Of a stretch of DNA of 64,000 nt, positions 8,135 through 9,265 are shown one piece after another; position 1 is the stretch's first letter, and every line of letters begins with the position of its first letter. The stretch lies in assembly GCF_003018255.1 (NCBI RefSeq), contig NZ_CP027440.1; one strand, 5' to 3'. The stretch is from Escherichia coli. GTDB lineage: Bacteria > Pseudomonadota > Gammaproteobacteria > Enterobacterales > Enterobacteriaceae. Made by a program: the position numbers and the translations under genes. The notes beneath the pieces are model-generated. The model did no database searches. It saw nothing but the letters and a program-made list of their open reading frames with translations, and was not told where the DNA came from.

Positions 8135-9265
8135 TTAGAACTGGTAAACCAGACCCAGAGCTACGATGTTATCAGTGTTGATGCCAGCGTCACGAGTGAA
8201 CTGGTTGTCGTCCAGCAGGTTGATTTTGTAGTCAACATAGGTGGACATGTTTTTGTTGAAGTAGTAGGTCGCACCAACATCAACATATTTCAGGATATCT
8301 TCGTCGTCGTAGTTACGACCATTGATGACACCCAGGTTTTTACCTTTAGACTGCAGGTAAGCCAGGGACGGACGCAGACCGAAGTCGAACTGGTACTGAG
8401 CAACAGCTTCGAAGTTCTGTGCTTTGTTCGCCCAACCCAGGGAACCTACGCGAGTTGCGTTGTAGGTCTGGGTGTACTGAGCAGCCAGGTAGATGTTGTT
8501 AGCGTCGTATTTCAGACCACCAGTGTAGGTTTCAGCACGGTCACCAGTACCGATGTAGTTACGGACCACATTATTGTCGCTTACATAGGTACCATTCTGA
8601 GCGTCAGTACGTTTGGAGCTGGACACTGCAGCACCGATACCGAAGCCTTCGTAATCATAAGTGATAGAACCGCCAACGCCGTCGCCGTTCTGACGCAGAG
8701 CACCACGACCGTTGTTGGTCATGCCTTCGCCATCTACGCTACCGTTTTTACCCTGGTACTGAACAGCAAAGTTCAGGCCGTCAACCAGACCGAAGAAGTC
8801 GGTGTTACGGTAGGTCGCGAAGCCGTTACCACGCTGCTGCATGAAGTTGTCAGAACCGTAAGTGTCGCCACCGAATTCTGGCAGGACGTCGGTCCAGGAA
8901 GTTACGTCATAAACAACGCCGTAGTTACGACCGTAGTCGAAAGAACCCACATCCTGGAATTTCAGACCTGCGAATGCCACACGGGTCCAGGAGTTGTTTT
9001 CGTTTTCAGCGCTGTTGCCCTGGATCTGATATTCCCACTGGCCGTAACCGGTCAGTTGGTCAGTAACCTGAGTTTCACCTTTGAAGCCAAGACGCATGTA
9101 GGTCTGGTCGCCATCTACAGACTTGTCGTCAGAGAAATAGTGCAGGCCGTCTACTTTACCGTACAGATCTAATTTGTTGCCGTCTTTGTTGTAAACTTCA
9201 GCAGCGTTTGCTGCGCCTGCTACCAGCAGAGCTGGGACCAGGAGGGACAGTACTTTAACTTTCAT
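8135..9265 (-). CDS. ompC: Outer membrane porin OmpC (non-K-12 loop allele)
   Basis: 376-aa ORF; signal peptide and beta-barrel core match OmpC, with indels/substitutions in predicted surface loops relative to the 367-aa K-12 protein as I recall it. Confidence 0.92.

Follow-up and report, generated by a model that had tools for sequence, protein, structure and literature searches.

The stretch of DNA analyzed here, referred to below as the window, comprises 64,000 nucleotides of Escherichia coli sequence (contig NZ_CP027440.1, assembly GCF_003018255.1), and its ompC gene occupies positions 8135..9265 on the minus strand. According to the ORF listing, the gene begins with ATG and consists of 376 codons plus a stop, with a frame that is uninterrupted from one to the other and encodes 376 amino acids. 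Gene order around it is canonical (napF–eco–mqo–yojI–alkB–ada–apbE–ompC–micF–rcsD–rcsB–rcsC), and the placement of apbE–ompC, the divergent micF and rcsD is the one annotated in K-12, NC101, JNE23-011, and DETEC-S792, i.e., ompC lies at its orthologous position. The micF sRNA gene (9599..9692, plus strand), which diverges from ompC, was recognized by Rfam model RF00033 with 116.8 bits (gathering score, 79), and a terminator for it was predicted at 9664-9686 of the same strand. The intrinsic terminator of ompC (8097..8116, minus strand) lies 19 nt past the stop codon and is formed by a GC-rich hairpin, AAAGGGCC-TGCG-GGCCCTTT, followed by a T run. On the other side of the gene, the 5' UTR, promoter, and upstream regulatory region (9266..9450, minus strand) were compared in a three-way alignment of the window, K-12, and NC101. 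Results showed no difference among the three in the 170 nt 5' of the ATG, while two sites farther upstream, at ~9436 and ~9447, carried three different bases in the three sequences. One of these two sites falls within TTTACATTNTGAAAC, and from there down to the ATG the sequence is invariant; this polymorphic stretch may be the OmpR C1 box of the K-12 literature. A 365-aa ORF on the opposite strand (8075..9172, plus strand) was not counted as a gene; it is an antisense shadow of the kind commonly seen with highly expressed genes. Nothing in the sequence of ompC or in its context suggests that the gene is inactive, and it is intact.

The identity of the product was established by profile and structure searches. 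OmpC is a trimeric, 16-stranded general-diffusion porin of the outer membrane. The window protein matched the NCBIfam model NF007841 ("porin OmpC") with 757.4 bits against a cutoff of 484, whereas it stayed under the cutoffs of the models for the paralogues OmpF (472 bits) and PhoE (448 bits). It also matched Pfam PF00267 (Porin_1, the general bacterial porin family; 467 bits), and the best matches in a search of PDB sequences were all OmpC. The signal peptide (9203..9265, minus strand, codons 1-21) is the same as that of K-12 at all 21 residues in a pairwise alignment, as had been stated in a preliminary description of this locus. Mature chains in the PDB begin at residue 22, and the mature N-terminus of the window protein, AEVYNK, matches them; the C-terminus is LGLVYQF, with the aromatic β-signal VYQF. 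The protein therefore carries both a Sec signal and a β-signal.

An AlphaFold2 model built from 77 diverse porins, collected in an exhaustive representative search, reached a pLDDT of 91.1 and a pTM of 0.87, and DSSP assigned it 16 strands and a closing β1'. An earlier AlphaFold run on an alignment of 44 near-identical OmpC sequences (A1) gave a pLDDT of only 32 and was discarded. When the predicted model was compared by Foldseek with K-12 OmpC (2j1n), the TM score was 0.96 and the rmsd 1.5 Å; across 2j1n, 2xe1, and 9wcb the values were 0.96-0.98 and 1.2-1.5 Å, so the model has the porin fold. It is least certain in the loops, with a pLDDT of ~73-78 across L4 and L5.

The preliminary description gave the length of the protein as 376 aa versus 367 aa for K-12, and the ORF listing and the MG1655 locus bear this out. 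A global alignment with OmpC of K-12 MG1655 (367 aa; b2215, NP_416719) contained 14 substitutions and 17 gap columns, the latter made up of a loss of four residues in L4 and gains of nine in L5 and four in L7 (NLGVINGRN), which together account for the difference in length. Of the 31 differing columns, 29 lie in the extracellular loops L1, L4, L5, and L7 and the other two in strand β10, while L2, L3, L6, and L8 contain no amino-acid change at all. Extracellular loops make up 39% of the mature residues and hold 12 of the 14 substitutions, a significant enrichment (hypergeometric P = 3 × 10⁻⁴). The largest changes occur in the three segments that the preliminary description had quoted as differing from K-12, and these proved to be L4, L5, and L7, each with an indel and substitutions. 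L4 (8681..8752, minus strand, codons 172-195) has the four-residue deletion and five substitutions at 176-178, 182, and 188; L5 (8540..8611, minus strand, codons 219-242) has the nine-residue insertion and four substitutions (225-236 and 240); and L7 (8303..8338, minus strand, codons 310-321) has the four-residue insertion and a G→N replacement (312-315 and 318). In the predicted model, the L7 insertion extends the tip of the β14-β15 hairpin. Two further substitutions, N47D and D49S, had been missed in that description; they lie in L1 (9101..9130, minus strand, codons 46-55), within the motif SDDKSVD, and the corresponding SDNKDVD is labeled L1 in S1 Fig of Beck et al. (2016; PMC5056734).

The two remaining substitutions, G→A at 212 and I→V at 214 (8624..8632, minus strand, codons 212-214; G195 and I197 of mature K-12 OmpC), are the only ones outside the loops. 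They fall in the motif GIGAAVSSS, inside a strand that DSSP places at 208-218 of the AlphaFold2 model, and the crystal-structure-annotated alignment of Beck et al. (2016, S1 Fig; PMC5056734) labels the block YEGFGIGGAISSSK as β10. The claim that the β-strand core is identical to that of K-12 does not hold, then, and the claim that changes are confined to surface loops was slightly too strong, since these two conservative substitutions lie in a strand. From the strand's alternating pattern, not from coordinates, we infer that both side chains face outward. In contrast, the constriction loop L3 (8834..8920, minus strand, codons 116-144) differs from K-12 by three synonymous changes only, so that residues 116-144, including the PEFGG motif at 129-133, are the same. 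The alignment and structural mapping that had been proposed as a check on the loop claim thus assigned 29 of 31 columns to loops and two to a strand, in a sequence that is not identical to K-12. In sum, the window protein shares with K-12 OmpC (2J1N) its signal peptide, its strands except for the β10 pair, L2, L3, L6, L8, and its genomic context, and differs from it in L1 and in the types of L4, L5, and L7, which are c7/b4/e in the window and a1/a1/a in K-12.

These loop types belong to a known allele. In the survey of Beck et al. (2016; PMC5056734), which classified L4, L5, and L7 of 2,707 E. coli OmpC proteins, RefSeq protein WP_000865549.1 of strain NC101 is the representative of L5 type b4 (S2 Table), NC101 carries allele 109, defined as c7/b4/e (S1 Table), and no other b-type L5 loop is as long as b4. 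The search for a matching allele that had been suggested for this locus led to the same entry: the window protein is identical to WP_000865549.1 over its whole length, its L4, L5, and L7 are exactly types c7, b4, and e, and it is so annotated in DETEC-S792 and JNE23-011, by way of DNA that is 100% identical. The ompC DNA of the window is in fact 100% identical to that of three complete genomes, DETEC-S792, JNE23-011, and JNE112863, and a gene with 99% identity or more is present in 36 of 5,426 complete E. coli genomes; at least 1000 public contigs encode exactly this protein. Among the carriers are commensal, animal, and probiotic-type strains such as NC101, M-17, NGF1, and possum and musk deer strains. 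The rarest part of the allele is the b4 loop. An 81-nt probe for it detected 35 of the 5,426 complete genomes, all with 100% identity, from human, mouse, dog, poultry, calf, possum, musk deer, river water, and wastewater. Since this number nearly equals the 36 genomes in which the whole gene is that similar, b4 and the rest of the allele seem to move together. Neither the allele nor its loop types are new to the literature, and the meaning of loop diversity in ompC has likewise been published; a paper on outer-membrane proteins of AIEC made no mention of NC101 or of the loop.

Comparison with individual relatives showed where the allele is shared and where it is not. NC101 OmpC has the same accession, protein, locus, and gene order, and its ompC DNA differs from that of the window at five synonymous sites only. 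The c7/b1/e protein of the KTE205/A42H/FEX669 type (WP_001539019.1) has the same L4, L7, and β10 as the window but an L5 of type b1 (GTYVVDNVTHNY), which is one residue shorter than b4. Between FEX669 and the window, 12 ompC codons differ; nine of these fall in a single stretch of 16 codons in L5, five of the nine being synonymous, and the other three are synonymous and scattered through the 3' portion of ompC. Among solved structures, the nearest in sequence (737 bits) is OmpC of EDL933 (O157:H7; PDB 9wcb), which is the same as the window protein outside L4 and L5, including L1, β10 (AAV), and L7 (VINGRN). The two differ at two positions of L4 (S→D, E→G) and in L5, where EDL933 has the short type a6 (DDQNSPLYIGNGD) instead of the long b4.

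The chromosomal surroundings of the gene were compared separately. The closest complete genomes are those of JNE23-011 and JNE112863, two human isolates from Japan, with which the first 25 kb of the window share 99.8% identity; for NC101-like and other strains the identity is ~98.5-98.6%, and for K-12 it is 97.9%. The statement that the strain is not K-12 is well founded in view of the 99.8% identity of this flank to JNE23-011 and 97.9% to MG1655. Since the 25 kb surrounding the gene is only 98.5% identical to NC101, the window also represents a lineage different from NC101, with which it shares the protein. Mismatches to the close relatives are unevenly spread. Of the 49 mismatches to JNE23-011 in 25 kb, 32 lie within 5001-7500, near ompC, and 66 of 73 mismatches to DETEC-S792 lie within 4135-7170, with only seven in ~7171-12700; positions 6001-7000 of the window are almost identical to NC101 instead. 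The yojI–alkB–ada–apbE stretch (4135-7500) looks, from this pattern of mismatches, like a recombination mosaic bordering ompC.

Several other observations were made in the window. The rcsB–rcsC intergenic region (13344-13428) holds one palindromic REP-like unit in the window and in JNE23-011, whereas NC101 has two REP-like copies 114 bp apart and K-12 has the same longer spacing; the whole intergenic region measures 85 bp in the window and 199 bp in those strains. Collinearity of DETEC-S792 (NZ_CP116067.1) with the window ends at the very start of rcsB (~12700); no rcsB is annotated after rcsD in that genome, and a gene for an S6-family peptidase (autotransporter) starts ~565 bp downstream, which suggests that rcsB of DETEC-S792 may have been disrupted by an insertion or rearrangement. 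Divergence from NC101 and FEX669 peaked locally at eco–mqo (1001-2000) and atoB–yfaP–yfaQ (22501-25000), with 15-27 differences per 500 bp over a background of ~5. The gene gyrA (33195-35822, minus strand) is wild type in its quinolone-resistance-determining region (S83, D87), so the strain has no gyrA-based fluoroquinolone resistance. None of the MLST loci falls within the window. At the yfaS position (26200-30819, minus strand) there is an intact ORF of 1539 aa whose counterpart in JNE23-011 is annotated as an alpha-2-macroglobulin family protein; yfaS is annotated as a pseudogene in K-12 MG1655, and the intact ORF is another non-K-12 feature of the window.

How did this combination of loops arise? 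Synonymous differences from K-12 are not evenly distributed along ompC, and codons 172-242 hold 11 of the 19 (P = 2 × 10⁻⁴). Since synonymous differences cluster with the loop changes, the pattern points to short-patch recombination among cassettes that had long since diverged from one another. The allele would most likely have been built in this way, from loop cassettes that diverged independently, and recent point mutation is not favored. The β10 pair would have been carried along with the L4–L5 segment, which is probable because it sits between L4 and L5 and because it is a common dimorphism (AV in 22 and GI in 18 sequences of alignment A1). The preliminary description had called loop diversification typical of ompC, and this agrees with the documented pattern, in which L4, L5, and L7 are found combined in many ways (Beck et al., 2016; PMC5056734). 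A sliding-window comparison with NC101, FEX669, K-12, and JNE23-011 was patchy and revealed no clean imported block around ompC. Since divergence from NC101 around ompC is patchy, no sharp recombination boundary showed up in that comparison, and one near 7170 was seen only against DETEC-S792.

An alternative to recombination is that the loops diverged recently within the lineage itself, by point mutations and small indels favored by positive selection. A passage of Beck et al. (2016; PMC5056734) describes phages and host immune systems as sources of selective pressure on ompC loops, and the extra Asn codon in b4 (AAT AAT, where b1 has a single AAT) resembles a simple triplet duplication. However, synonymous changes cluster with the non-synonymous ones, which is seen both against K-12 (the 11 of 19 above) and against the b1 allele (five of the nine L5 codons). 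Identical states of L4, L7, and β10 recur in other alleles in different combinations, and the 81-nt b4 stretch is identical across strains whose flanks are ~1.5% apart. We therefore regard recent point mutation as unlikely, and the exchange of pre-existing cassettes as the better account of the allele.

The functional consequences of the allele can be considered separately for the outer face and for the pore. The outer face of OmpC is the binding surface for phage receptor-binding proteins, class II CdiA toxins, and antibodies. With the surface face of L1, L4, L5, and L7 altered, recognition by all three would be expected to differ from that of K-12. Experimental grafts of L4 and L5 switch susceptibility to the CdiA-EC536 toxin, and the A42H allele (c7/b1/e), the closest to the window among those tested, conferred resistance to CDI-EC536 (Beck et al., 2016; PMC5056734). 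Since its nearest tested relative conferred resistance, the window OmpC is probably not a receptor for CdiA-EC536, a class II toxin that uses the OmpC-OmpF heterotrimer. For phages, PDB 9wcb shows the central tail fibre gpJ of phage A8 in complex with its receptor, EDL933 OmpC; if gpJ contacts L4 or L5, its recognition of EDL933 OmpC and of the window OmpC would be expected to differ. The earlier suggestion that loop diversification in ompC can alter recognition is in keeping with the decisive role of L4 and L5 for CdiA-EC536 in other alleles and with the gpJ–OmpC complex. Since the altered face is what phage proteins, CdiA, and antibodies bind, we infer that the window allele alters which of these recognize the cell, and not what the pore lets through.

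OmpC proteins assemble as trimers, form cation-selective diffusion channels, and are expressed at high osmolarity in dependence on EnvZ/OmpR. The elements relevant to these traits, which are predicted for the window OmpC as well, are as in K-12, i.e., the 170 nt upstream of the gene, L2, and the barrel bar the β10 pair. With the barrel, the trimer-forming parts, and the L3 constriction shared with K-12, the channel would work as it does there, and diffusion through it may be expected to be essentially K-12-like. The preliminary description had raised the possibility that the changed loops alter antibiotic permeation. In this explanation, the loops narrow the pore or shift its charge, altering the passage of antibiotics and solutes, and the allele is a resistance-relevant variant comparable to the clinical OmpC series 2xe1-2xe5 or to the L3 insertions of OmpK36. 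The PDB does contain clinical OmpC mutants linked to multidrug resistance, and since L4, L5, and L7 line the extracellular vestibule, some effect on access is conceivable. However, L3 (codons 116-144) and all barrel positions but 212 and 214 are the same as in K-12, and the changes at these two positions are conservative (G→A and I→V) and, by the strand pattern, probably outward-facing. Moreover, isolates of commensal, animal, and probiotic type commonly carry this protein, which does not fit a variant selected for resistance, and gyrA of the window has the wild-type S83 and D87. With L3 identical to K-12, nothing suggests altered antibiotic permeation; the suggestion was left without support, and we consider such an effect very improbable. 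The possibility of a pseudogene, or of an assembly artefact, with a spurious length difference found no support and is refuted by an intact frame with native start, signal peptide, and C-terminal VYQF, by three indels that are all multiples of three and lie in loops, and by identical DNA in three independent complete genomes, a protein present on at least 1000 contigs, and a model that folds confidently.

Taken together, we are highly confident that the window carries a normally placed, intact ompC of the catalogued NC101 type, with an altered surface, a presumably K-12-like channel, and loop cassettes that were most likely recombined. One further proposal is more speculative. Although only 35 of 5,426 complete genomes carry the b4 loop, these represent no fewer than two or three different chromosomal backgrounds. 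It is conceivable, although doubtful at present, that b4 is a horizontally spread cassette for receptor escape from certain OmpC-dependent phages (T4-like phages and the lambdoid phages with gpJ) and from class II CdiA, and that it also serves as a marker of NC101-like gut lineages.

By itself, the allele carries little weight; it raises no new question and has no bearing on antibiotic permeability. Its use is as a strain marker, which shows that the window is not K-12 and that its OmpC surface is of the NC101 type. OmpC-dependent phages would be predicted to infect the strain and K-12 unequally, and the strain should, as the A42H allele suggests, resist CDI-EC536. For the family, the allele is a further example of the documented modular shuffling of L4, L5, and L7 in ompC.
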